NCBI GenBank assembly: GCA_963662285.2
Contig: CAXXMV010000002.1
Location: 544,001 to 608,000, forward strand
Direction of reading: 5' to 3'
Source: a bacterium
GTDB lineage: Bacteria > Hinthialibacterota > Hinthialibacteria > Hinthialibacterales > Hinthialibacteraceae
DNA: 64,000 nt
The translations under genes were made by a program, and so were the position numbers. Each line of letters starts with the position of its first letter. The stretch's first letter is position 1. The notes beneath the pieces were generated by a model, which worked only from the letters and a program-made list of their open reading frames with translations, did no database searches and had not been told where the DNA came from. Of the stretch, positions 9,102-63,225 are shown one piece after another.

Positions 9102-9103
9102 GC

Positions 9104-12156: not shown

Positions 12157-12173
12157 TACACGTGCTGCATTAA

Positions 12174-12249
12174 TGGGGCGTGGTCGAATTGGCAAGACGT
12201 CTGACTCTGGATCAGAAGGCTGGAGGTTCGAACCCTCCCGCCCCAGCCA
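12174..12249 (+). tRNA. tRNA-Gln(CTG)
   Basis: Acceptor stem tggggcg/cgcccca; anticodon arm tctga-ctCTGga-tcaga; T-loop GGTTCGAA; encoded CCA. Confidence 0.95.
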
Positions 12250-12539
12250 CTTAAAACACAAGACTTACGGAATCCTCTATCTTTATCCTTCAACATCTGC
12301 ATCAATACCGTAAATCGAAAAACATTGTTTTAGCGCTTTATATGTATGACTGTTCGGTCATAGCAAAGGTAATTGTTCGTATTTACGGGGCAGTTGGTTA
12401 ACTATAGAGAATTTAATCGAGGTGAATAAATTATATTATTATCTTAAAACGGCGGTTATATTATTGTTTTGATTGGTTTCGGGGATTGCCGCATCCCGTC
12501 TTGAAGATAGGTCAAAGGGTACTTGGTTCGCTTTGTATG

Positions 12540-14075: not shown

Positions 14076-14088
14076 GATATTTTTTAGT

Positions 14089-14126
14089 TTTATCAGAATT
14101 TAATTGATTTATCAGAATCTAATTGA
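14089..14126. repeat. 19-bp tandem direct repeat in the intergenic spacer
   Basis: tttatcagaatttaattga / tttatcagaatctaattga (1 mismatch). Confidence 0.75.
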
Positions 14127-14129
14127 TAA

Positions 14130-15869
14130 TTATTTTTTTACAAACTCAATGATTCCCCAATATGCTGCTTCGAATTTCCATTCATCTGCGGCGTTTTCCA
14201 ATTGAAGCGTGATCTCCTGACCTGCATAAGCGGAAAGATCATAACGCAGGTCATACCATTTTATCTTCCCGTTTTCCACTCCAATAGTCTCTTCTTTCAG
14301 AAGATCGCCATTGACGCGCACCCGTAGTATCCAATCCGCTTCGGGGTCTTGAATGGAATGAGACGCCACAATATGAAGCACCGGTTTTTCTGCTTCAAGG
14401 ATGCCTTTAAAGGTAAGGACGCAAGGCGTTTCCTGATCTTTGGGATGGGTAACGAAAACATCATAGTGGCCTGCATAAGTCTTGCGCAGACCTGGGCTCA
14501 TCTCATCCCCGCAATTCTCCATTACCCAACCTGTTTTCCAGGTAGAAAAGGATTCTTTTACCTGATTACGGAAGCGCGCCTTTCTTTCCGTTTCCATAAC
14601 TGACCAATTATCCTGATATTGGAGGCGCATTTCATCAGTGAATTGTTCAAGTTTTTTGGGAGTTTCTGGCGTCTGAACCGGAATCTGGAAATATTCACGT
14701 TCTCCAAGACGCTTAATATTTCCACCATATTGTTTAATGAGATTGGTTGTTAAAGTTCTACAGGTTTGAATCAAGGTAGTGAAATTATATTGAGTATGCA
14801 GAAAACGGCGATTGCTTATCAATGGTATGCCAACCTTATATTGGTGGGGGATCCTACTGTATCCATTAAGCACGCCGAGAATTCCGGCGGCGGTGGAAAC
14901 ATTGCAATCATTATCCTGACCGCATCGGGTGGTAATTTCCATTGTCTTGGCAAAATCGCCCTCACCATACAATAATCCCAGAACAACATACCCGCCATTC
15001 AATTTGGCGTCGATATTGAAAGGCTTGCCATAACCATCAGGGCAAAGATCCGTCTCTCCCCATTTATCTTGCAACATCTTCCAACATCCCTGCCAATCAG
15101 TGGGATTAGCGCCGAAATAATTCAATACATCTCTTATCACCTGAGCATATTGGCTTTGTTTCGGGATGCATTTTAATCCTTGTTCGATCACTCCAACTCG
15201 GGTGTTCTCAAAATAGGCTGTGGAATACATTGCTGCGACGAAAAGACCGCCATAAAGACCATCGCCATAGTTCATCATCCGTCCAAATGGTTCCGCCATT
15301 TTTACTGCGCTGCGCGGCATTCCGGGACATAATATGCCAAATACATCCGCTTCAATCTGAAAATCAATGTCATTGGCATGGGGATTATAACGCGGGTGTC
15401 CCGAATCGGGGGGAAAAATCCCAGCGCGGATATTTTGACGACCTATGTCATTGGCATGCCATAGCGGATATTCGGTTTTGGCAAAATAATCCGCTGCTTC
15501 ACGGCCTGAAATCTGAAAACCTTTCTCATCAATTACCTGCAGGAAGGTCATTTGCACATATAAATCATCCTGCTCAAGCGAATTCATTACAAACTCTGGA
15601 GACCATTCCCGGATCAGTCCTTCGTCCATCATCTGGCCCAGGTATTTGAACTCATAGGGGGCGCTGTAACTAACGCCTATCATTTTGCCCGCCCAAGCGC
15701 CCATCAGTTTGTCTTCATACTCAAAAAAAGAAAGGCGACTTGTTTCCAGACTTTTGGGAGTATCATCTCCGATCCAGCCCGCGATCTTGTCTTTGACCTG
15801 TTTTACTCCACAAGATGAAAGTAATAAAAAAATCATTAAAACAAACGGAATGACCGCTTTAATTCGCAT
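14130..15869 (-). CDS. ADP-ribosylglycohydrolase-family lipoprotein with a C-terminal beta-sandwich domain
   Basis: Lipobox LLSSC; GAWAGKMIG, QDDLY, DIDFQIEAD and GQDNDCN motifs; RBS AAGGAG before ATG at 15869. Confidence 0.8.
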   Translation of the reverse strand: MRIKAVIPFVLMIFLLLSSCGVKQVKDKIAGWIGDDTPKSLETSRLSFFEYEDKLMGAWAGKMIGVSYSAPYEFKYLGQMMDEGLIREWSPEFVMNSLEQDDLYVQMTFLQVIDEKGFQISGREAADYFAKTEYPLWHANDIGRQNIRAGIFPPDSGHPRYNPHANDIDFQIEADVFGILCPGMPRSAVKMAEPFGRMMNYGDGLYGGLFVAAMYSTAYFENTRVGVIEQGLKCIPKQSQYAQVIRDVLNYFGANPTDWQGCWKMLQDKWGETDLCPDGYGKPFNIDAKLNGGYVVLGLLYGEGDFAKTMEITTRCGQDNDCNVSTAAGILGVLNGYSRIPHQYKVGIPLISNRRFLHTQYNFTTLIQTCRTLTTNLIKQYGGNIKRLGEREYFQIPVQTPETPKKLEQFTDEMRLQYQDNWSVMETERKARFRNQVKESFSTWKTGWVMENCGDEMSPGLRKTYAGHYDVFVTHPKDQETPCVLTFKGILEAEKPVLHIVASHSIQDPEADWILRVRVNGDLLKEETIGVENGKIKWYDLRYDLSAYAGQEITLQLENAADEWKFEAAYWGIIEFVKK

Positions 15870-16318
15870 AATTAGACTCCTTAATCCGAACTCTCTGATG
15901 TACAGGGCTATATGGAACAACCCGGTAAATTTAATTTTATCTTACACTTATACCACATTATTTAATGCAAATTAACCTACAAAAATCAATCCTGTCAACT
16001 CATAAGTCATATCAACTTCATAGACAAGAGTATCGAGATTATGCTGGATGCGATAGGGTTGATAAAGGTCTGGAGTGGTTGACGGGAATTTATTCGCATT
16101 AAACGTATCTAAAGTGATTCGCTCAACTCTACGTGCGCCTTAAAGGTCGTAAAGTCCTCCAAAGATGGGATTTTATATAGATTCAGCGTTTTCAATATGC
16201 ATAAAATTTTGTTAACCGTGATATCCGCCTTCTCAGAAGGCGCCTCTTGCCCTTACAATATGGCACTTGAAATATCTGGCTTTGGGATAACTTTGATCGG
16301 ATGTGGAGGAAACTATCG

Positions 16319-43685: not shown

Positions 43686-46014
43686 CAGACCTCCTGAGCT
43701 CACCCGTGGTTTGCGGTTCTCGCGGGATTTTGTTAGGATACTGGAGGGAAGGCCAATCCTGCAGAGTATGAGGGAGTTAAAAAAATGCCGCAGACCTTAT
43801 TACCTCTATTCGCATCAGGCGAAGGATTCATATCCGAGTTGATTTCCTATCAAAAAAAAGATGGATCGGTGTACTACTTTCATGCCGGATTACCGGTTTT
43901 CAGTCATGGGGAAACCGACCTTAAAAGTTTTCGCATGTTCACCAGCCAGTTGGCGGTCAGTGGAGTCTGCCGCCAAGTTGACATCGTTAGAGCCTTTGGC
44001 ATCAGCGCCATCAGTATGAAGCGATGGGTCAAGAAATACCGCGAGGAAGGCCCGGAAGCATTCTTCAAAACTCCGCGCCGACGCAGCGAACATGTCCTGA
44101 CGCCGGAGGTGTTGCAAAAAACCCAAGACCTCTTATCGCAGGGCGTGAGCCGTTCCGAAGCAGCGAAGCAAATGAATCTAAAATCGAATACCTTGTCGAA
44201 GGCGATCTGCGCAGGCCGCTTGACCGAACCGGTAAAAAAAAAGACCTGAACGGCAGCAACAAAAGCCAGCGCAGCGCGGCGGATCATGCCGCTCCCATGG
44301 GGATGGGATGTACGCGGGTCGTGGAGCGGGTCTGCGCGGCGACGGGGCAACTCAGCGAAGCGCCCACCCGTTTCGAGACCTCGCTGGACGTCTGCAATGG
44401 CGGCGTGCTTTGGGCGCTGCCGGCGTTATCGGCCAATGGATTGTTGACCAAAACAGAAGCCTTGTTCTCCCTGCCCAAAGGTTATTATTCCTGCATTCAT
44501 ATTTTCCTGCTGTTAGCTTTCATGGCCTTGATCCGGATCAAGACCAACGAACAGTTGCGCTATTTTCCGGCGGGAGAAGGGGGCAAATGGCTGGGATTGG
44601 ATCGAATCCCCGAAGTGCGGACCTTGCGGGAAAAGATCAAAATCCTGGCGGCGCCCGAATCGGTCGCGCAATGGAGCCGCATCTTGTCACGGCATTGGAT
44701 GGATAACAATCCAGAGGCGGCGGGAGTTCTGTATATCGATGGACACGTACGCGTCTATCACGGCTCGCAAACTCCGCTCCCCAAACGGTACGTGGCGCGC
44801 GACCGCTTGTGCATGCGGGGCACGACCGACTATTGGGTAAACGATCAGCAGGGCGATCCGTTCTTCGTGGTGAGCACGCCGTTCACCGCGGGATTGCTGG
44901 ATATGTTGAAACGCGAGATCGCGCCGCAACTGCTGCAGGATGTTCCCAACCAGCCCAGCCCGCAACAACTCGAAGCGAATCCTTATTGCCATCGGTTTGT
45001 CATGATCTTTGACCGTGAGGGATACAGCCCAACCTTCTTCGCGGAGATGCGGACGCTCCGCATCGCCTGCCAAACCTACAACAAGTATCCCAAAGAAGAT
45101 TGGCCGGAAGCGGAATTCACCGAGGTCAATGTGGAGATGCCCGGCGGCCATTCATCACGCATGAAATTGGCTGAACGAGGGGTGTTCCTGGGCCGGGTTT
45201 TGTGGGTGAGGGAAATCCGGAAACTCACAGAAAGCGGTCACCAAACCTCGGTGATCAGTACGGATTACACCTCTGATTTCACCCGTATTGCGGCGCATAT
45301 GTTCTCGCGATGGTCACAGGAAAACTTTTTCCGTTATATGATGCAACACTATGGAATTGATCGGCTTATCGACTACGATCTCGTCAAGCCGGATGATACC
45401 GTGAAAGTGGTCAATCCCGCCTATCGTTCTTTGGAAGGCCGGATAAAAAAACAAGCGGGACGATTGGGAAGAAAGAAGGCGGAGTTTGGAACTTTGGCGC
45501 TGACGGAATCCCAGGTGGAGGAGAAAGATATCTTATCCTTTGAACAAAAAAAGGGGGAAATCAAAGAAGATATCGAGCAGTTGGAGCATGAACTGGCCGG
45601 GATGAAGGAGGAACGTAAAACGGTTGACAAGCACTTGCCGCTTAATCAACTGCCGGAGCCGGAACGGTTTTTGCAACTCGCTCCGACGCGCAAACAATTT
45701 CTCGATGCGATTAAAATGATCGCCTATCGGGCGGAGACGGCCATGGCGATGATTGTGCGAACAAAATTGGCCCGAAGCGACGATGCCCGCTCATTGATCC
45801 GGGAAATATTTGCGACGGAAGCGGATCTCATTCCGGATGAGGAAAACAAAACCTTAACGGTGCAGTTGCACCATTTGACCAACCACCTATCGGATCAAGC
45901 CGCCCGCAACTTAGCAGCGAATCTCAACGCCACAGAAACCATCTACCCCGGCACGGAATTGCGACTAATCTACAAACTGGTATCGGATGAAATTCCACCA
46001 GATCAGGAGGTCTG
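43686..46014 (+). mobile_element. Insertion sequence, ~2.33 kb, DDE-type
   Basis: Terminal inverted repeats CAGACCTCCTGA / TCAGGAGGTCTG; flanking direct repeat ACGTT (or a 13-bp TIR with a CGT duplication); visibly higher GC than the flanks. Confidence 0.92.
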
Positions 46015-46015
46015 A
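43785..46015 (+). CDS. Transposase expressed as an orfA (HTH, 43785-44249)/orfB fusion via -1 frameshift (~743 aa)
   Basis: In-frame A AAA AAG in an A9 run at 44234-44242; orfB is in the -1 frame; candidate catalytic motifs YIDGH, FDREG and RWSQENFF. Confidence 0.8.
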
Positions 46016-53607: not shown

Positions 53608-53638
53608 AAAATTCCCCTCAAGACAAGAGGGGAATTTT
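53608..53638. terminator. Bidirectional terminator closing the virion-like operon
   Basis: aaaattcccctc-aagacaa-gaggggaatttt. Confidence 0.85.
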
Positions 53639-53684: not shown

Positions 53685-53993
53685 CTAGATAATTTCTATA
53701 GGAATAATATCCAGATTGCCTGCTTTCATGGAAGCATCCGCCAATTGTATTTTGCCATGAAGAATTCCAGCAATATTGGTATCACTGGATTGAACAGTGT
53801 ACTCAGCTATTCCCATTGGAGCATCTCTTTTAACGCAGCCGGTGTGATCAGTATTTTGCAGATCGTTGTCATTATATAAAAGAAAATCCACTGAAAATCC
53901 CGATAAATCTATAGGCGTTCCCTCCTCGTCCCGACATAAGAAAGTTAGCTTCAGGCCATAATCATTTTGGTTTATTCTAATAGAAGAATTCAT
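53685..53993 (-). CDS. BppU-like (baseplate upper protein N-terminal) domain protein
   Basis: INQND...LTFL.RD..G.PIDLSG.SV.F....G.AEY......AG...G.I pattern. Confidence 0.6.
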   Translation of the reverse strand: MNSSIRINQNDYGLKLTFLCRDEEGTPIDLSGFSVDFLLYNDNDLQNTDHTGCVKRDAPMGIAEYTVQSSDTNIAGILHGKIQLADASMKAGNLDIIPIEII

Positions 53994-54202
53994 GAATGCA
54001 CCTCGTTTAATGGTTTCCGGGCGAAATGAACTTGAACCGAATGATGGAGAGGTATTGTGATATCGATATATATCCGATGTTGATTATCAGAATCAATACC
54101 TTTTGCGCTCTGCCACTCTTGCCCCAGAAAACGCCCTGATCTGCGTAAGATGGGATCGTCGGAATTAATTGCTGATGAATTATTATTAGTGATATCAGAC
54201 AT
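53990..54202 (-). CDS. Small hypothetical protein (70 aa)
   Basis: RBS GGAGGAG before ATG at 54202; ATGA overlap with the next gene. Confidence 0.55.
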   Translation of the reverse strand: MSDITNNNSSAINSDDPILRRSGRFLGQEWQSAKGIDSDNQHRIYIDITIPLHHSVQVHFARKPLNEVHS

Positions 54203-54233
54203 GTTGCATCTCCTCCCTTCAGCTGGTGTTAAG

Positions 54234-55025
54234 TTACCAGGATTGATTAGGCGATAGATAGAAAGTTCCATCGATGGGTGGAGTTGTAGAACGAATTTCT
54301 TTTGATGATTTAACCGCAGAGGAAGCATTTGAATAATATAAAACGCGGAAAAATGTTTCTATGGGAGTCGCGAACAGGATATCATCCGGCGCGGCGAGTT
54401 GAATTTCAATATGAGAGGGTAAATCAGCGGGAACTTTCCTCATGCTGCTATCAATCGCGCTTTGAGCATACCACAATCTGGCGCGGGAATATTCGCGGGA
54501 ACCAATGCGAACCTCATTATTCATATCATCAATAGTTGCAATGATGGCCTGGCTGGCTGATAAGACAGACGCAGTAACGCAAGCAACCATTTCGTTTTTG
54601 TATGGAAGATACGCCGCCTCGGTAAGAGGCGTCAGACCTCCGAGACCGCTTACTTCATTGGCGATTCCCGTAATCCCATGACCTGCGCTGTATAGCGAGT
54701 AGGTCTTATAGGCTTGCGCCGTCACTCCACCGATCAAACCGGAAATCAATATATCATACTGTCCGGGGCTATCTCCACTGGTGGAATAGGAACCTGTAGC
54801 AACGCCAAGTTGCGCAATCGACATTGATCCTGAAGAGAGCGCTGCGCCAAACTGCATGACCGAGTAAGATAAATTTACCGGATTGGTTGGAGAGCCAGTA
54901 ACCGGATCAGAAGCAATAACCAGAAAAGGGATGTTCTCTCCAACTTCAAACATCCCTAAATAATTTTGAGAGAATGCAGGTAAAGAAAAAATCAGTACGT
55001 ATAATGATAATAAAAAGCGTTTCAT
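54234..55025 (-). CDS. Secreted protein with an Ig-like N-terminal region, inside the virion-like operon
   Basis: MKRFLLSLYVLIFSLPAFSQ Sec signal; Ig-like G.ATGSYST..PGQYDI; RBS AGGAGG. Confidence 0.75.
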   Translation of the reverse strand: MKRFLLSLYVLIFSLPAFSQNYLGMFEVGENIPFLVIASDPVTGSPTNPVNLSYSVMQFGAALSSGSMSIAQLGVATGSYSTSGDSPGQYDILISGLIGGVTAQAYKTYSLYSAGHGITGIANEVSGLGGLTPLTEAAYLPYKNEMVACVTASVLSASQAIIATIDDMNNEVRIGSREYSRARLWYAQSAIDSSMRKVPADLPSHIEIQLAAPDDILFATPIETFFRVLYYSNASSAVKSSKEIRSTTPPIDGTFYLSPNQSW

Positions 55026-55046
55026 GATAAAAACCTCCTGTTTTCT

Positions 55047-55301
55047 TTATACTTTGTCAGAGAAAAAAACGCGCAATACCACGGCGATAAGACTTCCGAC
55101 TAAGGCGCTGACGCATGCCGCCGTCGCTTTAACGCCAGCAAGATCCACCCGGCTGTTATCCACTTTGTTATAGAGATCGATATTCGATTGATGGATATCT
55201 CGAACTGAACATTCGATAGATTCCAATCTTGTGCGAATATGCTCTAATGAAGTTTGTATCTCGACGTACTCTGTGGTGTACCTGGCATCTGATCCGTTCA
55301 T
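55047..55301 (-). CDS. Small coiled-coil protein with a C-terminal TM helix (XhlA/holin-like)
   Basis: Heptad LEHIRTRLESIE followed by hydrophobic ACVSALVGSLIAVVLRVFF; RBS GGAG. Confidence 0.6.
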   Translation of the reverse strand: MNGSDARYTTEYVEIQTSLEHIRTRLESIECSVRDIHQSNIDLYNKVDNSRVDLAGVKATAACVSALVGSLIAVVLRVFFSDKV

Positions 55302-55344
55302 GGCGTTCTCCATTTTTTCACTTTGTTATATAAATCACTCCAGA

Positions 55345-56196
55345 TTAATTACACTTTTGCCATCCCGACGAACAGCGGATATAAGCGCCATCCTGGTTAT
55401 CATCGCTGGTATGGTCGAAGTAGATTAAATCGCCCACTTCACCACCGGGTAGAGAGTTATAAACCGGGAGTTTCAATGGACCCGAAAGAGTCAAACGACC
55501 AGTATCGCCATTGAGCAGCATGGAATTTGACTGCGTATCGCTATGCCATGCGAAATTAGCATCAGAATAGAAATCCATAGTACTGGCGGAGATTGCCAAG
55601 CGGTATAATGTTCCGAACAGGCGCAGCTTATCACCGGTGGAATCTTGCGCGAATTTAAATAGCCCTGTAGAGATAACATCCCGCCCGGCTTGAATATCCC
55701 GTTTAATTTGCACATCCCCGTCATCACCCAGAATAACCATTAAATCGGGAACGGTATCACTGTGGAATTTGATGTTCTGATCCGAAGTGATATCCAAATC
55801 GAATGGAGATACGCCTATGCTGTAGGAATGGCTATAGAAGCGTATTTTATCTCCCAGAAAATCGGCGAATTCCATCATGGTTGCAGGTATGATTTTGCCC
55901 GATGACGTCCCTCCACTGGTGGGATCGAGCTGCATATCTGTATTTGACCGGATTACGAATTTTGATCCATCGCCAAAGATATGAAACAAACCCGCATTAT
56001 GGTTCAAAACAAAAGTCGCCGCCTCAATGGTTGATGTTGCGGCGCTGACATCGCCATACAAGGCGCCGCCGGATTTTAACAAAAAGGCGTCTTCGATCTG
56101 CTCTTTCCCTATTAGGGTTTGCGAGCATGAATTTATAGGATTTGAGTAGACAAGAACGATGAATCCAAAAATATAAAACAACTTTGATTTCTTCAT
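55345..56196 (-). CDS. Tail-fibre-like repeat protein with an N-terminal signal peptide or anchor
   Basis: MKKSKLFYIFGFIVLVYS; LLKSGGALYG fibre-like motif; two GDK(I/L)R..HSDT repeats. Confidence 0.6.
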   Translation of the reverse strand: MKKSKLFYIFGFIVLVYSNPINSCSQTLIGKEQIEDAFLLKSGGALYGDVSAATSTIEAATFVLNHNAGLFHIFGDGSKFVIRSNTDMQLDPTSGGTSSGKIIPATMMEFADFLGDKIRFYSHSYSIGVSPFDLDITSDQNIKFHSDTVPDLMVILGDDGDVQIKRDIQAGRDVISTGLFKFAQDSTGDKLRLFGTLYRLAISASTMDFYSDANFAWHSDTQSNSMLLNGDTGRLTLSGPLKLPVYNSLPGGEVGDLIYFDHTSDDNQDGAYIRCSSGWQKCN

Positions 56197-56231
56197 GTTG
56201 CACCTCATTGGATTGAAAAAAGATACTGTTT

Positions 56232-57029
56232 CTATTCGATTTCGTAATCGACTATATAGCGGTGTTGAATTCTGTAATGAGCCGAAGGAGATTGATTGAA
56301 GGTATAACTATTACGCGATTCATCCTCCTTGTAATCAATTCCTTGTTGTTGCAAGACGCCGTTAAGATAGATATTCAGGCTTCCGGTGCGGTAAATATGC
56401 CTGGTGAAGAACTGGGTTCGCTCTCCATCCGGCGCTTGATCCGGTGCGGCATCCGTTCCGTGCAGATGGGCTTCGCCAAGCATAAATCTGGGGCGGACAT
56501 CGATGATGTATGACTGGACGTTATCATCCACCGCTACGATAGATTCTGCGCCTACCCGCTGGTATATCTGCGCCAAAACCAATGAATCAGATGGCGTCTC
56601 TGGAGCAATGGGCGTCTCCGCCTCATCTCCCTGAACCACATCCAATTCGCCCGCATCGGTCAGGACAATCAAATCAATACGCGGATATGAAACAGGCGCG
56701 ATGAATACTCCGCCTGCAGGGAGGACTTGCTCCTCCAGCGATCCGGCGAATGATTTTTGTATCACCGCCAATCCAGGACTGACTTTGATCGTCATGTCTG
56801 GAGAATCGGCGGGAGTAATCTTGAGCGAATCATCTCCCATGTTTGTGATAACGGCGGAACTGTTCCTGGCAAAGAGAGACGCGCACGCCTGGTGCAGTAA
56901 TTCGAATGCAGCGGTGATGTTGCCATTCCAACGATTCACTTTCGAAGAAGTTAATGGCGCCTCCTGGAAGACGAAAAGCGCCGAAGTGTTTTCAGTATTT
57001 TCCGGGTTATAACGTCCATACTGAGCCAT
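56232..57029 (-). CDS. Phage minor tail/baseplate-like protein
   Basis: IKVSPGLA..PRIDLIV..G..P.AP.TP...LVLAQI..IIDVR pattern; C-terminal DG.RT.F..IYLNGVLQ..GIDY module; RBS GGAGG. Confidence 0.65.
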   Translation of the reverse strand: MAQYGRYNPENTENTSALFVFQEAPLTSSKVNRWNGNITAAFELLHQACASLFARNSSAVITNMGDDSLKITPADSPDMTIKVSPGLAVIQKSFAGSLEEQVLPAGGVFIAPVSYPRIDLIVLTDAGELDVVQGDEAETPIAPETPSDSLVLAQIYQRVGAESIVAVDDNVQSYIIDVRPRFMLGEAHLHGTDAAPDQAPDGERTQFFTRHIYRTGSLNIYLNGVLQQQGIDYKEDESRNSYTFNQSPSAHYRIQHRYIVDYEIE

Positions 57030-57030
57030 T

Positions 57031-58026
57031 TTAAGCCTCCCGGTTATGCAGTGTTTGAACTGACAAAGAGCCTTGATCCTGACGGGTGACAGCGGCGATT
57101 GATACGGCTTCAGCATTTTTATTGCTGCAATCACTGAGGATTTCTCCAAGGCAGGCGCCATCTTCTTGTAAGAGAGTATTAGCAGTTTGAAGCATGTCCT
57201 CATTGGTTGCACTACGAATCCACAACAGGTCAGCGCTTTTGGATAACGCGTCGGAAATATCATCCAGAGTATTTCTTTCTTGCAACAAGCCGCGTTTTTC
57301 CAGAAAGTCTAAAAGTGGATCGTCGCCATCACCAACTATCAACACAGGATTGTCATTTACAAAACCATCTTCAGAACGCTCGCCGGATAGATAGGTGTTA
57401 CGGTCAGCGCTCTTGTATACCAGAGAGCCTTCAAGCACTTCGGTGATATGATCGATCAAACGATAACAGCGCTGTTCGTTATACAACGCTCCCGCCCGGT
57501 GGCCGCATCTACCATTGGGAGAACGGCAAATCGAGCAACTCCATGCATCAAATTTCCAGGCCAGAGAGACTTCGCGATAAATGCCGCCGTCAATATTAAG
57601 CAGCAGGTCTTTGGCGCCGCTGGTATTGCGCAGCCAATAAAACCAAGCCCGTACAAAAAAGACCGGCTCGTTGCTATTCTGCAAATCGCTTTGCACAACT
57701 TCCGCCTTAAAAAAACGTGCGATTGGAAGTGAAGAACGATCATGACCAGTTAACACTGACAATCCGACTACTCGCTGTGCGATTTCATCCAAAGCATTAC
57801 GGGTAAACTGACAACCGTCTGATAAACATGGTTGTGAAGAGCAGAGATACATGCTTCTGATAAAAACCTGTTCCGAAGACAGATTACCCGGGGCGAGTTG
57901 ATTGATAATTTCCATGTCCGATTCGCTAGTCGGAACATCTTCGAACATCGGTTTACCACGGGTTAACATAGTCGGCATTTTGTTTTTAATCTTTGAAAAG
58001 GAGCGTCCACTTAATTGATTGGACAT
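57031..58026 (-). CDS. HK97-type prohead maturation protease with a Cys/His Zn-like insert and an extra C-terminal domain
   Basis: VLTGHD (His), GIYREVSL (Ser), CSIC..CGH..C insert, EGSLV..AD; RBS AGGAGG. Confidence 0.7.
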   Translation of the reverse strand: MSNQLSGRSFSKIKNKMPTMLTRGKPMFEDVPTSESDMEIINQLAPGNLSSEQVFIRSMYLCSSQPCLSDGCQFTRNALDEIAQRVVGLSVLTGHDRSSLPIARFFKAEVVQSDLQNSNEPVFFVRAWFYWLRNTSGAKDLLLNIDGGIYREVSLAWKFDAWSCSICRSPNGRCGHRAGALYNEQRCYRLIDHITEVLEGSLVYKSADRNTYLSGERSEDGFVNDNPVLIVGDGDDPLLDFLEKRGLLQERNTLDDISDALSKSADLLWIRSATNEDMLQTANTLLQEDGACLGEILSDCSNKNAEAVSIAAVTRQDQGSLSVQTLHNREA

Positions 58027-58072
58027 AGCGCGCCTCCTGTTTTTTATTTGTTTTCAGATAGATTCAACTTAA

Positions 58073-58726
58073 TTAAATCCAGAAATCCCGGTATTGGATG
58101 GTGCAGAAAAAATCCGCGTTCGATGGCTGCGCTTGCACCGTCACCTGATTGACGCCAACATCAAGTGAAGGAAAATCATCCATTGACCGGGCGAGACTCT
58201 TTTCGTCCTTAAACAATGATCTACTTTCAGAATCGACAATCAGAGATTGTCCTTCATCAAGGGTTTCATCCAATTCGCAGATTCGATTTCCGATGGATAT
58301 TTCCAGATGATGGATGGCTTGAATTGCCTTGATGGATATGTGCAGCGGCGCTATCCAGTTCCCGGCATTGAAAAGCGAAAGAGCTGCGCGTCCGAAGAAA
58401 CCTGATAATGAATGAGTATGAAGCGACAGGCTTCGTTCATAGCGATCACTGGTAAGTGCGGTGAATTCCACCCATGTCCGTGAGCCATGAAGGTTGGGTG
58501 CGGTGTGAAAAGAACGGCGCCGCCCAAGATAAAAACGCCCTGGATGAAGGCTTAGATGAGTCGCGCCCTGATCAAAAGATTCAACAGCATTTTCAAGTAT
58601 ATCCATCGACTTATCTATCATTGATTGAATCCGTATTTCCTTACGGACTTTACTTTTTGCTTCAATGGTATTGACCTGCATAATTGTCGAACGTTTAGGA
58701 AACTCGAAATCGCCAACCGATATCAT
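58073..58726 (-). CDS. Distal tail (Dit/Sipho_tail-like) protein
   Basis: NAGNWIAPLHISI, L..GQSLIVDSE.R, FPSLDVGVNQV and IQYRDFW; TAATG coupling with the upstream gene. Confidence 0.7.
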   Translation of the reverse strand: MISVGDFEFPKRSTIMQVNTIEAKSKVRKEIRIQSMIDKSMDILENAVESFDQGATHLSLHPGRFYLGRRRSFHTAPNLHGSRTWVEFTALTSDRYERSLSLHTHSLSGFFGRAALSLFNAGNWIAPLHISIKAIQAIHHLEISIGNRICELDETLDEGQSLIVDSESRSLFKDEKSLARSMDDFPSLDVGVNQVTVQAQPSNADFFCTIQYRDFWI

Positions 58727-59118
58727 TATTGATCTCCCTTCGTAACAACCACCGGCGTAGAAACGCTGACGCGAAGATAAGGACGCAACATGCACCAGGA
58801 TTCTTCCCACAAGACTTCTGATAATTTCATCAGATTATTCAAACGGCTTGATTCATTGACTTGCAAACCCGAAGTACGCCAGTCATTGGTCGAAACAGCA
58901 CAAGAAACCACTATTGAACGAAAGATATGAGAAACGGCTAAAAGCGATTCGGCGCTTATAATCTCATTCGTTATCCCGCTTTCATCAGTCAGCATCGTCC
59001 CGGCCAAGATGTCCTCATGCGCTTTTGAAAGATTGTCGAGTAAAAGTTCTGGTGTGATTTCATCGAAATTGCGCAGGTTTGCCGCCTTACGCACGTCACT
59101 TTCAGTTGCAAAACTCAT
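58726..59118 (-). CDS. Putative head-tail adaptor (helical, 130 aa)
   Basis: Immediately follows the capsid gene; MSFATESDVR start; helical pattern ending LRPY. Confidence 0.55.
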   Translation of the reverse strand: MSFATESDVRKAANLRNFDEITPELLLDNLSKAHEDILAGTMLTDESGITNEIISAESLLAVSHIFRSIVVSCAVSTNDWRTSGLQVNESSRLNNLMKLSEVLWEESWCMLRPYLRVSVSTPVVVTKGDQ

Positions 59119-59150
59119 AGTCCTACTCCATGTTTCTCTTGGAGAATTGC

Positions 59151-59184
59151 GGGGAGCAAGTCGCCCAACAACGACTCGCTCCCC
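59151..59184 (-). promoter_or_regulatory. Strong intergenic hairpin after the capsid gene (mRNA stabiliser or attenuator)
   Basis: ggggagcgagtcg-ttgttggg-cgacttgctcccc on the minus strand, no U tract. Confidence 0.6.
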
Positions 59185-59204
59185 TGTAATGACATCACAC
59201 GCGA

Positions 59205-60269
59205 TTAGGCCGATCCAATGTCTAGTATTTTGCACGAGTCAGTGATGACTTTTGCGAATCCAGCAGTTTCAGAAATAGCTGTTCCTTCGATCTGGCGCCG
59301 GATCAAACGCTCGCTTTCAGTCAACACTCCTGTTTCATAGACTTCTTGTAGCGCAAAGCGTCGATCAAGACCGATGATTTTATTATTCGATACGGATTCA
59401 TCAACAATTAATTCAGCGCCAAAGAGACGGACGTTTTCACCTTTGGTCTGGAAGCCGCCAGTGACGGCGGGTTCGCTGATCTCATCAACGCCCAGCAGCG
59501 TTCCTGCTGTGGTTTTATTGCAGATCATGATATTCATCTGGTAGGGAGCGAAAGAAAGAACGAACGAAACCAGGTCGCTATAGGTTAAAGTTCCAGCAGT
59601 CGCTGCATCAATTTCAACGGCGGGATTGCTATTGCCATCACCATTAATAAGTACATCAATGGCGTCAACAAACTTATCGCGTTGAATCTGAACGCCGATA
59701 CTGCGCAGGAAAACCGAAATAACATTGGCGCGTTTGCGGCGGATTGCTTCATAGGTCGCCTGGAGATAGCGCCCGTATTTCTTGATTTCAACTGAATGTT
59801 CAGCCGTCTTGAGTTCTATTGCAGGTAGCGAAGCGCCTTCGCCGACAATAGCCAGAGATTTATCTCCTGTATCAAATACCGATTCATCCATGTAGATGCT
59901 TTTGTATGAGTTGTCATCGATTTTGACGCGTGCGGCGAGGATGTTTCTCAGTTTATTGAAATCATCAAAACCGGTTTGCACCGAGCGGGAAACATATTCA
60001 GGAAACAGCACTGCACTCTCCTGGGAGGCGAAGAACCGGTCAATTATATCTGCGTCATTGCCGCTCACCCGAATACCAGCCAGAGCCAGCTGCCGTTCGA
60101 ATGCATCAAGTTCCGCATCCTGCGGTGATGGATCCAGGCTCTCCAGATATCCGGTTAGATCGAAGCCGCGTTGCGCGGATTCGGCGTACATGCCTTCATG
60201 CAGAGGAATTGTTGCAGCGCGATGCAAAGTTTCTGGTATGGAATTCAATTTATCTTCTGGAAAAAACAT
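59205..60269 (-). CDS. Major capsid protein, HK97 fold
   Basis: LFPEYVSRSV, VGEGASLP..ELK, KKYGRYLQATYEAIRR, INGDG and LFGAELIVD motifs; 354 aa; RBS AAGGAG. Confidence 0.85.
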   Translation of the reverse strand: MFFPEDKLNSIPETLHRAATIPLHEGMYAESAQRGFDLTGYLESLDPSPQDAELDAFERQLALAGIRVSGNDADIIDRFFASQESAVLFPEYVSRSVQTGFDDFNKLRNILAARVKIDDNSYKSIYMDESVFDTGDKSLAIVGEGASLPAIELKTAEHSVEIKKYGRYLQATYEAIRRKRANVISVFLRSIGVQIQRDKFVDAIDVLINGDGNSNPAVEIDAATAGTLTYSDLVSFVLSFAPYQMNIMICNKTTAGTLLGVDEISEPAVTGGFQTKGENVRLFGAELIVDESVSNNKIIGLDRRFALQEVYETGVLTESERLIRRQIEGTAISETAGFAKVITDSCKILDIGSA

Positions 60270-60345
60270 AATATAAACTCCTTATTTACTCTAAGAATTT
60301 AACTGGTTGTTCTTTTTTTCGTCTTTCAAACCGAGGCGATATCTT

Positions 60346-60753
60346 TTACAGAAGAAGATCGCAGGTACTGCTTCCATCTACCGCAAGAGTGGTTCCACGG
60401 GCGATATTGCCGCCAGCCGGGTCGCCGGATGATTCAGCAATCGCAGGCGCCTGGTACACTTCACCAGCCCCATCAACCACAACGCTGTTGCCGACGCCTG
60501 GGGCCGTCATGCCTGATTTCAACCGGAAACGCGCCACGCCGCGAATTTGCACTGTAGCCAAACCACCTGAAACATGCTCCAAGCGCCCCAACAATTGACC
60601 GCCATTGCTGCCATGATTAATTTGGTTGCTGCCGGAAAGCACGACGGCGTCACCGACATTGGTTTCTTCCAGGTCGTAATCATCACCCGTCTTGTGAATG
60701 TTGAATGTGGCGTATAACGCGCCGATTCCATTGTTATCAACTGTTCTACTCAT
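60346..60753 (-). CDS. Putative head decoration/cement protein
   Basis: Small Gly-rich beta protein directly upstream of the capsid gene (VGDAVVL..LLG...ATVQIRG..PGVGNSVVVDGAG). Confidence 0.6.
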   Translation of the reverse strand: MSRTVDNNGIGALYATFNIHKTGDDYDLEETNVGDAVVLSGSNQINHGSNGGQLLGRLEHVSGGLATVQIRGVARFRLKSGMTAPGVGNSVVVDGAGEVYQAPAIAESSGDPAGGNIARGTTLAVDGSSTCDLLL

Positions 60754-60812
60754 TGGTTTTCCTCCACTGGATTTTTTTTGGTTGAAACAAGATTTTTCAA
60801 TTACTCAATCTC

Positions 60813-61283
60813 TTAGTCCGCAGCCCCGATGCGGTAATCCGCCAAATCACCGATGCGGGCAGAAGACGCTGAAGCATCTTCTTGAAAACGCGATAATGGT
60901 TTGGTTGGATAGAGGCTTCTAAACTCGTTGGTAATCTGGCGATGCAACATTGCAATCTCACTCAATGGAAAAGAGTTATCCGCAAAAGAACGTTCCATCG
61001 TTTGCAAGCGTTCTCTATCGCCGCTGTAATGGACAATGGCGCGCAAACGAGTCAAAGACTCCTGCTTTTGTTTTTCAACTGCACATCGTCCAAGATCAGC
61101 GTATCGAGAGAGATTCTTTGACTCGTCTTCTAGTCGATTGATAGTTTCAGTTTGAATCTCGTTGCGCTGTTTCTCTGTTTCGACTTCTTTTTCGAGTTGT
61201 TCGCACTGCAAGGCTAATTTTCGTACATCCAGCATTGCCGTGATTTTTTCATTGCGATTATGGTGTTGATTATCAGTAGCCAT
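60813..61283 (-). CDS. Coiled-coil protein, putative capsid scaffold
   Basis: Long heptad region, YADLGR, short C-terminal DYRI tail; first gene of the operon. Confidence 0.55.
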   Translation of the reverse strand: MATDNQHHNRNEKITAMLDVRKLALQCEQLEKEVETEKQRNEIQTETINRLEDESKNLSRYADLGRCAVEKQKQESLTRLRAIVHYSGDRERLQTMERSFADNSFPLSEIAMLHRQITNEFRSLYPTKPLSRFQEDASASSARIGDLADYRIGAAD

Positions 61284-61516
61284 TGTTTTTTGACCTCTTT
61301 TTCAAGTCGGTTAAAAAAAACTCCTCTACTAATAGGGAGGATGTCTGCAAAAAAAAGGCGTTAATCTGCATGTCTTTTTTTCAAGACCGGCTTTAATTAT
61401 TAATTTGCAAGGATTTAGGTTCGGTAGTAAAATTTAAAAGAAAGGAATTTCAAACATCAAATATTAACTGAAAAATTAGAAAATCATAAAAAACCGGCCC
61501 TACGCAAGGATCAAAA

Positions 61517-62905
61517 ATGGAGATACGACCTCATATCATCATCATTGGCGGTGGATTCGGTGGTTTGTACGCCGCTAAAACTCTAAGACGCGCTGCTGTT
61601 GATATTACGCTTATCGATAAACGTAATTTTCATCTTTTTCAACCACTGTTATATCAAGTTGCCACAGGAGGTTTATCACCGGGTGATATCGCATCTCCAT
61701 TGCGGGCGGTGCTAAAAAATCAAAAAAATACCCGTGTTATAATGGGATCGGTAACGGATATTGATAGCAAAAACCGCAAAGTTTTCTTAAAAGATAAATC
61801 TCTCGACTATGATTACCTGATAGTCGCAACCGGAGTTAGACATGCCTATTTCGGCAACGACCAGTGGGAAGATATTGCGCCCGGCTTAAAAACCATCGAA
61901 GACGCCGTTGAAATGAGACGTCGTTTGTTCTACGCCTTTGAAGCAGCCGAACGCGAAACCAACACAGAAAAACAAAACCGCTGGTTGAATTTCGTACTCG
62001 TAGGAGGCGGCCCGACCGGAGTTGAACTGGCTGGGGCGCTGGCCGAATTAGCCAGGCATACCTTGAAGAATAATTTCCGCAACATAAATCCAGCCCATGC
62101 CCGCATTCACCTGATCGAAGGCATGGACCGCATATTATCCGTTTATCCCGAAAAACTATCTGCCAAAGCGCATAGCAGCCTAGAAAAACTAGGCGTTACA
62201 ATTCATACCAATACGTTTGTAACAGACATTGACCAGAACTCAGCAACCATGCGCCATGAAGAGAAAGATTTTATTATCCCGACTAAAACCGTTTTTTGGG
62301 CAGCTGGAGTTCAAGCCTCATCGTTAGGCAAGATTTTAGGAGAACAAACATCTGCGACGCTGGATCGTATTGGTCGAATCGAAGTCGAGCCTGATTTAAG
62401 CATCCCAGGTAATCCGGAAATATTCGTCGTCGGAGATTTAGCGAATTTCAAGCACCAGACCGCCAATCCACTGCCCGGCGTGGCTCCGGTCGCTATGCAA
62501 CAAGGTCTATACGCCGCCAAAATAATAATCCAAAAACTCAAAGGTAAGAAACATAAACCATTTCATTATCATAACCGGGGCAGCATGGCCGTTATCGGAA
62601 GAGCCGCTGCGGTAGCTGATTTGAAATTCTTTATGTTTTCCGGTTACCCGGCATGGTTTATTTGGTTATTTATTCATATCATGTACCTTGTAGGATATCA
62701 AAACAGGTTATTGGTTTTTATTCAGTGGGCTATCAATTACTTCACTCTCAACCGTGGCGCACGGCTAATAACCGAACAACATCTAAGCGTACTCAAAGCG
62801 CTTAAAAAGCAAGAAGAGAACAAAAATCGGGGGGAGGAGGTGATCGCGGACCGGTCTAACCGGTGCGAGGAAAGTCCGGACTCCAAAGAGCAGAACGCTG
62901 GGTAA
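61517..62905 (+). CDS. ndh: Type II NADH:quinone oxidoreductase
   Basis: IIGGGFGG, FQPLLYQVATG, VGGGPTGVELAG, WAAGV, VGD, A.QQG and RGARLIT motifs. Confidence 0.93.
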   Translation: MEIRPHIIIIGGGFGGLYAAKTLRRAAVDITLIDKRNFHLFQPLLYQVATGGLSPGDIASPLRAVLKNQKNTRVIMGSVTDIDSKNRKVFLKDKSLDYDYLIVATGVRHAYFGNDQWEDIAPGLKTIEDAVEMRRRLFYAFEAAERETNTEKQNRWLNFVLVGGGPTGVELAGALAELARHTLKNNFRNINPAHARIHLIEGMDRILSVYPEKLSAKAHSSLEKLGVTIHTNTFVTDIDQNSATMRHEEKDFIIPTKTVFWAAGVQASSLGKILGEQTSATLDRIGRIEVEPDLSIPGNPEIFVVGDLANFKHQTANPLPGVAPVAMQQGLYAAKIIIQKLKGKKHKPFHYHNRGSMAVIGRAAAVADLKFFMFSGYPAWFIWLFIHIMYLVGYQNRLLVFIQWAINYFTLNRGARLITEQHLSVLKALKKQEENKNRGEEVIADRSNRCEESPDSKEQNAG

Positions 62906-63188
62906 CTCCCAGGAGGGGTAACCCTATGGAAAGCGCAACAGAAAATATACCGCCTGCATTATTGTAGGTAAGGGTGAAATGGTGGGGTAAGAGCCTACCG
63001 CAGTTCCGGGCGACCGGACTGGCACGGCAAGCCCCGTTCGGAGCAATGCCAAATAGGAGAGGGAGGCGCTGCTCGCGCCGATCCGCCTTCGGGCGGCGAA
63101 CTCTCGGGTAGGCAGCTTGAGGCCGTTGGTAACAACAAGCCCAGATAAATGATCACCCTCGACAAAATCCGGCTTATACCTCCCCCCG
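62828..63188 (+). ncRNA. rnpB: RNase P RNA (bacterial type A)
   Basis: GAGGAAAGTCC, ACAGAAA, AGGGTGAAA..GGTAAGAGC, GCAAGCCCC and ACAAAATCCGGCTTA; P1 cggggggagg/cctccccccg. Confidence 0.96.
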
Positions 63189-63225
63189 AATAAAAAAAGA
63201 TGATAATCACCTCTTGATAATTAAT

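Follow-up and report, generated by a model that had tools for sequence, protein, structure and literature searches.

A conserved operon of phage structural genes as the likely main locus of a dispersed, GTA-like particle system in an uncultured phylum, probably Ca. Hinthialibacterota

What kind of system does a bacterium maintain when it keeps an intact operon of phage head and tail-tip genes with neither portal nor terminase beside it? The operon lies in the window (the whole 64-kb stretch of DNA analyzed here) and runs from 61283 to 53685 on the minus strand, as do all operon features given below. Its 12 ORFs (o1 to o12) point in one direction and none is broken, as the earlier note had described, although it counted 11 ORFs while listing 12. 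Coordinates and ortholog alignments showed tight gene junctions within the operon: the o4 stop shares 1 nt with the o5 start, 4 nt separate o6 from o7, and o11 runs 4 nt into o12. The flanks are a 284-aa ORF without an assigned family, which had been called hypothetical, and ndh (61517-62905) with rnpB (62828-63192). The earlier note had proposed to test synteny with ndh-rnpB; ndh is a neighbor of the operon in only 3/9 relatives of family f1 (the families of the phylum are labeled f1 to f6). A perfect 15-bp stem-loop at 59151..59184, between capsid gene o3 and o4, agreed with the hairpin reported 3' of the capsid gene; the segment 59110-59215 on the minus strand folded at -42 kcal/mol (z -3.85, 1/200 shuffles equally good). 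A consensus scan also detected, downstream of o12, a terminator-like site with stem-loop and T-run (53614..53630). Because the region contained 16 such sites against 8.5 ± 3.2 in shuffles, any single one is weak evidence. No direct repeat of 15 nt or more brackets the operon, consistent with the reported lack of att repeats. Integrase and repressor genes were absent from the ORFs between 44024 and 53599 and from ndh, the only flanking ORFs scanned within the window, and across this genome and its relatives the loci scanned, together with their neighbors, yielded no integrase, replication gene or repressor. The window indeed holds no portal or terminase; the sole portal-like and Terminase_6N matches of the genome lie outside it.

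The head genes were identified to differing degrees. The product of o3 (354 aa, 59205..60269) is an HK97-type major capsid protein, as had been proposed, with matches to phrog_3922 (2.3e-80), PF25209 (3.6e-12) and TIGR01554 (36.3 bits, above cut-off) and a dN/dS of 0.05-0.07. A match to phrog_4588, "virion structural protein" (3.5e-6), supports a structural role for the decoration-like o2 (135 aa, 60346..60753); the decoration role itself remained without verification. It was present in 14/14 phylum loci examined, with orthologs 45-77% identical to the window protein and a dN/dS of 0.11-0.19. The coiled-coil protein o1 (156 aa, 60813..61283; dN/dS 0.29-0.30) gave only a weak DivIC-like coiled-coil match in family searches. 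Its placement ahead of the decoration-like and capsid genes was kept in 9/9 f1 and 2/2 f2 loci, and its scaffold function is inferred. The family matched by o6 (331 aa, 57031..58026), phrog_16951 (8.6e-28), is of unknown function, and its sequence had no match in the PDB. A homolog in phage MT835508 sits between portal and capsid, with a weak match to protease phrog_18299 (7e-5), and homologs occurred in 74/80 IMG/VR contigs. The protein has a Cys/His cluster, and residues H95, S154, C164, C167, C174, H176 and C187 were invariant. The prohead protease label therefore rests on position in phages and the invariant His and Ser, not on a family of known function; we consider o6 protease-like from sequence and position alone. 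Scaffold-like o1, o2, capsid o3 and o6 would make up the head.

For the tail tip, o5 (217 aa, 58073..58726) matched the C-terminal domain of SPP1_Dit (PF22768, 1.9e-7) and phrog_33 (1.3e-4), and its ortholog profile matched SPP1 gp19.1 (2x8k, 6.5e-6), which bears out the distal tail protein (Dit) label. The AF2 model of o7 (264 aa, 56232..57026; pLDDT 75) had 75 BFVD matches at E<=1e-3, annotated as receptor binding protein, minor tail protein or tail fiber (best 1.5e-11). Its PDB matches were weak (best 2.9e-4), and its sequence matched DUF4815 (2.3e-4). The modeled fold of o7 resembles those of receptor-binding or minor tail proteins of phages, in line with its earlier "minor-tail-like" description. 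The gene o4 (130 aa after trimming the start to fit orthologs, 58726..59118; dN/dS 0.13-0.19) had no match in family searches or the PDB. Its position was kept in 8/9 f1 loci and also in f2 and f5, and position is the sole basis on which we infer a neck or adaptor function. Together, o5 and o7 would form a short, tube-less tail tip, with o4 as the candidate neck.

The remaining genes, o8 to o12, may encode secreted or membrane accessory proteins. In o8 (287 aa, 55345..56208; a 761-aa form in f2), a signal-peptide-like N-terminal segment with an A-Q-T junction was kept by eye in 9/9 orthologs; no match was found in family searches or the PDB, the fold is unknown, and dN/dS was 0.11-0.17. The secreted nature claimed for o10 (263 aa, 54234..55025) was confirmed, its signal peptide being kept by eye in 8/8 orthologs. 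It has no family match and no known function, and it occurred in 7/9 f1 loci and was missing from the f2, f5 and f6 loci. Sec-type signal peptides are odd for virion parts assembled in the cytoplasm; those of o8 and o10 are unexplained and count against a GTA-like reading. The product of o9 (88 aa, 55047..55313), with a hydrophobic C-terminal segment, had been called holin-like; XhlA-like matches do exist but are weak (PF10779 XhlA, E 0.085; phrog_1193, E 0.043). It was found in 8/9 f1 loci, with a dN/dS of 0.03-0.09. The small ORF o11 (~70 aa, 53990..54202), whose start was inferred from orthologs of 66-90 aa, had tblastn matches in 5/9 f1 loci (31-46% identity) and none in the family search. 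The function of o12 (102 aa, 53685..53993; 8/9 f1 and 2/2 f2 loci; dN/dS 0.06-0.17) is unknown, as is that of its sole match, phrog_1084 (1.5e-3). Four labels of the earlier note received no significant support: scaffold (o1), adaptor (o4), fibre (o8) and BppU-like (o12).

The genome-wide search that the earlier note had proposed found a portal, a hub and a large terminase, each once and each as a single orphan gene among host genes. The portal lies ~500 kb from the operon (C2:104535-105899), a gp27/Mu gp44-like baseplate hub at C2:80801-81928, and the large terminase (TerL) at C8:864079-865665. The hub model (pLDDT 83.5) matched eCIS, diffocin and Mu gp44 hubs (E 7e-20 to 7e-17), and TerL matched Terminase_6N (4.7e-16) and phrog_2 (3e-38). 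Motifs assigned as Walker A, Walker B, the coupling motif and two acidic nuclease motifs were kept in 7/7 TerL orthologs. At dS similar to that of the operon genes, dN/dS was 0.14-0.17 for TerL, 0.05-0.11 for the portal and 0.14 for the hub. Genes flanking the portal are conserved between genera, as host synteny; those flanking TerL are not. TerL was found in 13/19 f1 genomes, in one of them in fragments, and a protein query and two family profiles failed to find it in the near-complete G012 (95%) and G014 (99%). Since repeats and an IS481 copy flank TerL in the genome carrying the window, its absence elsewhere may reflect assembly loss. The TerL of an f5 cluster (phrog_38) is essentially unrelated to that of f1/f2, so either the motor was replaced or f1 recruited its own TerL independently. 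The window's genome yielded no identifiable small terminase, tail tube, tape measure or endolysin, and no second capsid, portal or Terminase_6N. In f1 and f2, as much as 500 kb separates the parts, or they fall on different contigs.

A promoter/operator-like element of 70 nt (61312..61381, minus strand) lies ~30 nt ahead of o1 and consists of an ATGCA box, a T-run, TGCRG and then the core CTCCCTATTAGTAGAGG. A 70-nt nhmmer profile built from the sites at o1, portal and TerL recovered just these three in the 7.29 Mb genome (E 3e-18 to 9e-15; next-best match E 0.62). The hub in this genome has only the core of the element. In the loci of relatives (343,788 bases), each of the 6 matches at E<=1 is followed after 13-45 nt by an o1, hub or portal ortholog. 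Recovery at this threshold was low (o1 4/11 loci, hub 1/13, portal 1/2, TerL 0/3). Because operon, portal and TerL share one element, they are probably switched on together, a conclusion drawn from sequence without expression data.

The gene content, dispersal, conservation, purifying selection and shared element of the system are all shown from sequence, and we read it as phage-derived and vertically inherited. The capsid gene was found in 29/35 phylum genomes (17/18 high-quality ones), nearly always in one copy, and in 2/26 genomes beyond the phylum at 31-37% identity. The portal was present in 18/19 f1, 4/4 f2, 7/7 f5 and 1/1 f6 genomes and absent from f3 (0/2) and f4 (0/1); the hub gave the same counts except in f1 (17/19) and was absent from other phyla (0/26). 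A capsid tree of 22 rows grouped f1 (96/99), f2 (100/100), f5 (94/90) and f1+f2 (86/74) and followed taxonomy with 5 label changes, the minimum. The order of o1-o3 and o5-o8 was identical in 9/9 f1 loci. In deeper-branching families the scattered parts lie in or beside the capsid cluster (portal in 6 relatives, hub in 5, terminase in 2), and in f5 and f6 the portal precedes the capsid by 1.3-2 kb. Two f5 genomes have a ~11.7 kb cluster that unites head, tail, lysis and terminase genes: portal, scaffold-like gene, o2, capsid, o4-o7, M15 peptidase, hub, 145-aa ORF and TerL, near which no integrase was found. For 10 operon genes, dN/dS was 0.03-0.30 in each of two congeneric pairs (unsaturated dS 0.24-0.77), and all genes tested, including portal, hub and TerL, are under purifying selection. 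The earlier note had proposed to test vertical inheritance, which the single-copy capsid and its tree bear out. The sequence-based outcomes it had named as refuting it did not occur: the locus is phylum-wide and not strain-specific, dN/dS is not neutral, and the closest relatives, within the phylum, are the same element and not complete prophages.

An intact, host-kept gene set, with portal, hub and motor genes elsewhere behind a shared element, makes a GTA-like particle the most likely product. We read the operon as the chief locus of a GTA-like particle system that was domesticated long ago and has since been dispersed, at a probability of about 0.58; particles, packaging and transfer have not been shown. 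That form of the host-maintained capsid system, with modules elsewhere, had been one of two suggested by the earlier note, and the orphan genes, shared element, purifying selection and co-location in deeper-branching families all support it. The same domesticated DNA-packaging particle could instead have another host role, for example killing in the manner of PBSX, lysis or eDNA release, or decoying phages, which is possible but doubtful. Every domestication argument holds equally for such a role, the secreted o8 and o10 hint at the cell envelope, and a particle with neither tube nor tape measure may not deliver DNA. The weak XhlA likeness of o9 also points this way, XhlA being a lysis-associated family of PBSX. 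The PBSX particles of Bacillus are likewise host-kept, with head and tail; they package host DNA and possess a lysis accessory protein of the XhlA type. PBSX is encoded in one uninterrupted prophage-like region and its tail is contractile, whereas the loci here are dispersed and the o9 matches marginal. No toxin-like gene was seen among the operon family matches, and the data do not separate killing or decoy from transfer; o7, Dit and hub suit any cell-adsorbing particle.

The other form suggested, a DNA-free, tailless shell, we consider improbable; it would be a nanocompartment or encapsulin-like particle built from reused parts of head and baseplate, and the orphan terminase would have no connection with it. 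The failure to find TerL in 6/19 f1 genomes, its variable flanks and its different type in f5 would fit. Against this stand a conserved portal, co-occurring with the capsid phylum-wide under strong purifying selection, a motif-intact terminase that shares the upstream element with operon and portal, and the TerL within the f5 cluster; no cargo-like gene was recognized. Encapsulins resemble the system in HK97-fold shell protein, host chromosomal location and vertical inheritance, but are not known to have a portal, protease, terminase or tail parts; the present system has each of these (the protease as protease-like o6). Very improbable is a still-mobile element, such as a small temperate phage or a cf-PICI-type capsid-forming satellite, or a decaying prophage remnant. 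The head module seen here (portal, o6-like gene, capsid) is common to a 46.7-kb faecal phage and numerous IMG/VR "viral" contigs of 10-15 kb (capsid identity 38-46%), the compact f5 cluster is flanked differently in two genera, and ndh adjacency is poorly kept. Yet homologs of o5, o7 and hub occurred in 0/80 viral contigs, the portal is embedded in host synteny, and single-copy inheritance, intact ORFs, dispersal and the lack of integrase, replication and repressor genes at the loci scanned all speak against it. Like this system, a cf-PICI is a small element that brings its own HK97 capsid, protease, portal and terminase but no complete tail. Unlike it, cf-PICIs are mobile, differ from strain to strain and encode integrase and replication functions; in the present system, which is phylum-wide, we found no such genes, and it adds a Dit, a hub and a receptor-binding-like protein of its own.

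Similar known systems include the RcGTA-type GTAs of Alphaproteobacteria (Rhodogtaviriformidae), in which phage-derived structural genes are likewise host-kept across a large clade, without replication and integration genes. Dit and hub mark the tail tip of either system, and extra parts come from other loci with joint expression, which here is only inferred. The main cluster of RcGTA includes terminase and portal, and RcGTA possesses a tail tube and tape measure; in f1/f2 of the present system the portal, hub and terminase are dispersed, and no tube or tape measure was found. The operon here also has two secreted proteins, and its capsid belongs to phrog_3922 / PF25209. The nearest counterpart in architecture, as a GTA without a tube and spread over more than one locus, is FpGTA of Faecalibacterium, with a compact 10.5 kb head and packaging operon and, ~125 kb away, a 5.5 kb locus of baseplate, fibre, receptor-binding and lysis genes (PMC12946183). 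Its particles are inferred to resemble podoviruses, their 40-nm heads holding ~8.5 kb of host DNA, and FpGTA is genus-level, in Bacillota and experimentally shown (PMC12946183). The present system, by contrast, extends through a whole candidate phylum of diderms, is split over at least 4 loci and is known from sequence only.

If the GTA-like reading is correct, a host signal would lead to expression of the regulon, and proheads would form on the portal, with o6 driving maturation. The terminase would load DNA into the proheads, and o4, Dit, hub and o7 would seal and arm the vertex; that the Dit-hub tail is tube-less is inferred from the absence of tube genes. The particles would then leave the cell and carry DNA to related cells. 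Particle formation, packaging, release and transfer are all inferences, as is the assignment of the system as a GTA-like viriform, whose host lineage is probably the whole candidate phylum OLB16 / Ca. Hinthialibacterota.

The twelve ORFs of the operon, o1–o12, run in one orientation on the minus strand from 61283 to 53685 and none is interrupted; the earlier note had described them as co-oriented and intact, which they are, and had counted 11. The HK97 capsid recognized there was confirmed as o3 (354 aa; phrog_3922, 2.3e-80; PF25209, 3.6e-12; TIGR01554, above cut-off), and the Dit-like (distal tail) protein as o5, which matched PF22768 (1.9e-7) and whose ortholog profile matched SPP1 gp19.1 (2x8k) at 6.5e-6. 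The o7 model (pLDDT 75) gave 75 BFVD matches at E≤1e-3 (best 1.5e-11) to predicted phage receptor-binding, minor tail and fibre proteins, in line with the minor-tail-like protein proposed; PDB structure matches were weak, and viral clusters found in an Atlas search (0.91) serve as a lead only. For o2, called decoration-like, a match to a "virion structural protein" family (phrog_4588, 3.5e-6) supports the label in part, and the holin-like character of o9 comes down to a weak likeness to XhlA. PDB sequence-profile searches with o2, o4, o6, o7 and o8 produced no matches. No significant family was found for o1, o4, o8, o10, o11 or o12, and the names scaffold, adaptor, fibre and BppU-like are position-based or unsupported.

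The o6 protein belongs to phrog_16951 (8.6e-28), a family of unknown function. Its homolog in the faecal phage MT835508 is encoded between portal and capsid and weakly matches a head-maturation-protease family (7e-5). Of 80 related IMG/VR contigs, 74 have a homolog, which precedes the capsid gene in the eight listed, and one His, one Ser and a Cys/His cluster are invariant across 16 aligned homologs. From these sequence features we read o6 as a putative prohead protease, without a fold model or a PDB sequence match; the earlier assignment thus survives as far as phage position and the invariant His and Ser carry it. Sec-type signal peptides, judged by eye without a predictor, were conserved in 9/9 o8 and 8/8 o10 orthologs, which bears out "secreted" for o10. 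They are at odds with virion assembly in the cytoplasm; we have no explanation for them and count them against our main reading. The o8 homolog in the two f2 loci (f1–f6 denote families within the phylum, f1 being the window's own) is 761 aa, ~2.7 times the length of o8 in the window (L022 and L025, about 13614-15910), and neither o10 nor o11 was found in these two loci.

Several features described for the operon and its surroundings were also recovered: a perfect 15-bp hairpin after the capsid gene (z –3.85), a terminator-like site after o12, and the absence of any repeat bracketing the operon. Upstream, on the opposite strand, lie ndh and rnpB. In the synteny check proposed for this pair, ndh was adjacent in 3/9 f1 relatives. 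The called ndh ORF (61517-62905) shares its last 78 nt with the rnpB match (62828-63192), and its Pfam domains stop at residue 409 of 462. A Transposase_29 gene (663 aa, 44024-46015, plus strand, E 1e-201) some 8 kb away from the operon sits in a local G+C peak of 0.54-0.57 versus about 0.44.

The earlier note had suggested a GTA-like element with its other modules elsewhere, and orphan portal, hub and large terminase (TerL) genes were indeed found elsewhere in the genome. A search with phrog_30703, a portal family from a related phage, returned exactly one locus in each of five genomes tested. In the genome carrying the window it is a 455-aa ORF on contig C2 (104535-105899; phrog_3753, 8.1e-45), beyond the window and separated from the operon by ~500 kb, with rsfS, a zinc-ribbon gene and a large NHL/PMT_2 gene as neighbours. 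Portal orthologs occur in 18/19 f1, 4/4 f2, 7/7 f5 and 1/1 f6 genomes, and in none of three from f3 and f4. Their placement differs between families: in six genomes of f5 and f6 portal and capsid share a contig, with the portal 1.3-2 kb upstream, whereas in f1 and f2 it lies away from the capsid, in host synteny conserved across genera.

The complete gene set is contiguous in an f5 genome (locus L024), where it spans ~11.7 kb between lptE and holA. The order there is portal, a 229-aa protein in scaffold position, o2, capsid, o4, o5, a short form of o6, o7, a 118-aa ORF, an M15 peptidase, a 104-aa ORF, a 365-aa protein, a 145-aa ORF and a 473-aa large terminase (phrog_38, 7e-72). A second f5 genus repeats this order, except that no M15 peptidase homolog was found. 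The 365-aa protein has a single homolog in the window's genome, an orphan at C2:80801-81928 whose neighbours encode a TPR lipoprotein on one side and a hydrolase on the other. Its phyletic pattern is that of the portal, with no homolog in 26 genomes outside the phylum. On the strength of its predicted structure (pLDDT 83.5), which matched eCIS, diffocin, MuSo2 and Mu gp44 hubs in Foldseek at E 7e-20 to 7e-17, the orphan is a gp27/Mu gp44-type baseplate hub. A PDB sequence-profile search had given a weak diffocin-hub match (E 0.09), with which the fold search later agreed, and an Atlas search pointed to viral clusters at 0.97-0.98, one GpP-like baseplate cluster among them (leads only). Complex prediction for Dit (o5) and the orphan hub scored 0.00, which speaks neither for nor against binding.

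The one orphan terminase in this genome, at C8:864079-865665, matched Terminase_6N (4.7e-16) and phrog_2 (3e-38). Walker A, Walker B, a coupling motif and two acidic nuclease motifs, as we take these ATPase and nuclease motifs to be, were present in all seven sequences examined, and dN/dS was 0.14-0.17. TerL orthologs were found in 13/19 f1 genomes (in one as fragments only) and 4/4 f2 genomes. A protein query and two family profiles did not find TerL in the other six f1 genomes, two of which are 95-99% complete. The flanks of TerL vary between genomes; in the window's genome asnB lies on one side and short repeats and an IS481 copy on the other. This IS481-family transposase (C8:866000-867500) recurs in at least nine other places on C2 and C8 at 99-100% identity, one copy abuts the orphan TerL, and short repeats flank the gene as well; such copies and repeats may account for the absence of TerL from relatives' short-read assemblies. 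In a relative, G007, TerL is present in two copies (C12:163095-164444 and C14:221463-222815; L054 and L055) within a 1.7-kb duplication that is 97.8% identical. The TerL of the f5 cluster has no sequence relation to that of f1 and f2. No second capsid, portal or Terminase_6N was found in the window's genome. Weak phrog_2 matches elsewhere in these genomes had suggested a second terminase; the one examined, in the window's genome, was a RecD2-type helicase, and the lead was rejected. A phrog_38 terminase in another genome (G008) shares no more than 28% identity with the f5 cluster TerL across 207 residues and was not counted.

The regions before o1, the portal and TerL in the window's genome align over ~70 nt; what they have in common is an ATGCA box, a T-run, TGCRG and a core resembling CTCCCTATTAGTAGAGG. 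When the three sites were combined into a profile, it retrieved only the same three in the 7.29-Mb genome (E 3e-18 to 9e-15). The next-best match had an E of 0.62; it is intergenic (C1:901082-901144) and lies 54 nt before a 234-aa ORF (L158:1680-2384) that has a signal peptide, does not resemble o8 or o10, and may be a further regulon member. As an independent test, 343,788 bases from 29 loci of relatives were scanned at E≤1. All six matches lay 13-45 nt upstream of orthologs on the correct strand, four of them at o1 and one each at the hub and the portal. The match rate was low (o1, 4/11 loci; hub, 1/13; portal, 1/2; TerL, 0/3), which indicates that the element has diverged; weaker copies in relatives were seen by eye and in a smaller search, and the hub in the window's genome has only the element core, ~20 nt before its start. 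A short bipartite regex was not enriched (four sites versus two to six in shuffles) and carries no weight, so the evidence consists of the long profile and the site positions alone. The short core motif has 13 sites in the genome, and 8 of the 9 not at particle loci fall within long open frames. We read the element as a dedicated promoter/operator that keeps the loci co-regulated, without expression data or a known regulator. Another promoter-like repeat, in which TTGATRC and TAGAGT are spaced by 15 nt and follow GATGCTCCCC and a T-run, has at least four copies in the same genome (C2:116124, C4:103492, C6:1146978 and C8:821966), one of them before a prepilin-type gene; it has the TTGGTAGAG core in common with the particle element and differs in the rest.

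The capsid gene is single-copy in the window's genome and was found in 29/35 genomes of the phylum, 17/18 high-quality genomes and 22/27 genera. Its identity to the window copy falls with taxonomic distance, from 66-82% within the family to 64-65% within the order and 55-59% within the class; among 26 genomes sampled outside the phylum, only two matched, at 31-37% identity. A maximum-likelihood tree of 22 capsids (19 phylum copies, two from genomes outside the phylum and one from a phage; the other 10 of the phylum's 29 copies were omitted for want of a locus or because only fragments were available) recovered every family and the order with the minimum number of label changes, and congeneric pairs grouped together. 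Vertical inheritance, which the earlier note had asked to be checked, is thereby supported for these copies. Gene order was also kept: o1–o3 and o5–o8 are in identical order in 9/9 f1 loci, where o4, o9 and o12 are each present in eight and o10 in seven. The two f2 loci retain o1–o9 and o12, and the three f5/f6 loci retain o2, o3, o5, o6 and o7; o4 was picked up in one of the latter by the window query and in all three by an f5 query. Every operon gene compared had dN/dS of 0.03-0.30 in two independent congeneric pairs, for which dS was not saturated (0.24-0.77). Portal (0.05-0.11) and hub (0.14) were likewise constrained, with dS close to that of the operon genes. The locus, which the note would have given up had it been strain-specific and neutral, is neither. 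In one relative, G016 (82% complete), the hub (C16:11850-12901) is broken by several stop codons and the portal is intact, and no capsid or terminase was found. The system does therefore get lost, and it appears to be decaying in that lineage.

The lineage of the head module is common among gut "viral" contigs of 10-15 kb in IMG/VR, and the nearest gut relatives of the capsid family are labelled Flavonifractor. None of the 80 related contigs contained o5, o7 or the hub. Many of these contigs (L074-L153, for example L084, L089, L104 and L122) are only ~10-15 kb long and contain TerL, portal, an o6-like gene and a capsid that lies about 3.7-4.4 kb from an end of the contig; in L089 this capsid shares 85-98% identity with proteins listed under Flavonifractor. 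These short contigs could be GTA-like or satellite elements of gut Oscillospiraceae. A compact capsid cluster is also present in a genome of another phylum (L027, G053:C6:30700-50600, about 3431-12794), where its flanks carry PEP-CTERM/TPR genes and an HD-GYP response-regulator gene. The cluster contains portal-like, Terminase_6N-like and o2-like genes, a 507-aa o6-like fusion, a capsid with 36-37% identity and two further ORFs, one BNR-like (470 aa) and one of 269 aa, and may be a second, independent small capsid element.

The genes recovered amount to a head, a neck candidate, Dit, a hub, a receptor-binding-like protein and a packaging motor. This particle system is ancient, single-copy and constrained, and in f1 and f2 its genes are divided among at least four loci unable to travel together. 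Two traits of GTAs are fulfilled: structural and packaging genes of a tailed phage lie in the chromosome (capsid, Dit, portal, hub, TerL and the receptor-binding-like protein), and they evolve with the host, vertically over a clade and under purifying selection. Our verdict is a multi-locus GTA-like system, probably without a tail tube, that was domesticated independently and is conserved across a candidate phylum. We give the GTA-like reading a probability of roughly 0.58; particle formation, packaging, release and transfer are inferred, without expression or particle evidence. Under this reading a host signal would switch the regulon on, proheads would assemble around the portal and mature via o6, and the terminase would fill them with DNA. 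The vertex would then be closed by o4, Dit and hub without tube or tape measure, and particles would be released, bind cells via o7 and deliver DNA. Neither a tail tube nor a tape measure was recognized in the operon or the compact f5 cluster, and neither of these, nor a small terminase or an endolysin, was identified in the window's genome, in all cases without a genome-wide family search. The closest architectural analogue in the literature consulted is FpGTA of Faecalibacterium, to which no homology has been shown; its description reports a 10.5-kb head and packaging operon, a separate 5.5-kb operon for baseplate, fibre and lysis, and podovirus-like particles of about 40 nm, each with ~8.5 kb of host DNA (PMC12946183).

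The same particle could have another use, as a killer, a decoy or a lysis device, which we consider unlikely. A DNA-free shell would be consistent with the failure to find TerL in six f1 genomes, with its variable flanks, and with f5 and f1/f2 terminases that are unrelated. Portal, protease-like protein, TerL, Dit and hub are nevertheless present and co-distributed, contrary to what defines an encapsulin, and no encapsulin-type cargo was recognized, which leaves such a shell quite improbable. A mobile element or its remnant is scarcely tenable. Integrase, replication and repressor genes were absent beside the loci scanned (not every neighbouring ORF was covered), and a system that is phylum-wide, single-copy and congruent with taxonomy does not behave as a cf-PICI or other satellite. 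Decay of a prophage is contradicted by intact ORFs and dN/dS well below 1, the broken hub of G016 being the only exception.

The GTA-like reading can be pushed further, to a version that we regard, taken as a whole, as tentative and rather doubtful. It would be an independent GTA lineage, fixed before the radiation of most of a phylum without a cultured member, with a tail that has no tube and places Dit and a gp27-like hub immediately below the neck. Its at least four scattered loci would be coupled by a dedicated promoter/operator, and so by an unidentified dedicated regulator or sigma factor, and Sec-secreted o8 and o10 would have been recruited to act outside the cytoplasm, for example in particle release or in marking or priming recipients.

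The capsids of isolates SURF_12 and Ch114 are 73-77% identical to the window capsid. The OLB16/SURF_12 lineage was formerly misclassified as Omnitrophica (PMC10066038), and OLB16 received the name Ca. Hinthialibacterota in a phylum description whose main text does not mention phage, capsid, virus, encapsulin or gene transfer agent (PMC9324843). We infer from this that the phylum of the window is OLB16. No literature was found for an OLB16 gene transfer agent or a Hinthialibacter capsid, with ~1.7 million PMC articles outside the search. Virus-detection tools will label such loci prophages and miss the scattered orphan portal, hub and terminase.

To our knowledge, few independent GTA lineages have been described so far, most of them from one or two model organisms. 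The gene set described here is a minimal parts list for a tube-less particle, and the shared element is a concrete handle towards its regulator. The two states within one phylum, a compact cluster of ~11.7 kb in f5 and f6 and four scattered, element-sharing loci in f1 and f2, would record the dismantling and rewiring of a prophage-like cluster under host control. If true, an ancient, phylum-wide domestication in an uncultured diderm phylum would mean that the keeping of phage particles is a recurrent host strategy, one that extends well beyond Alphaproteobacteria and a few others.
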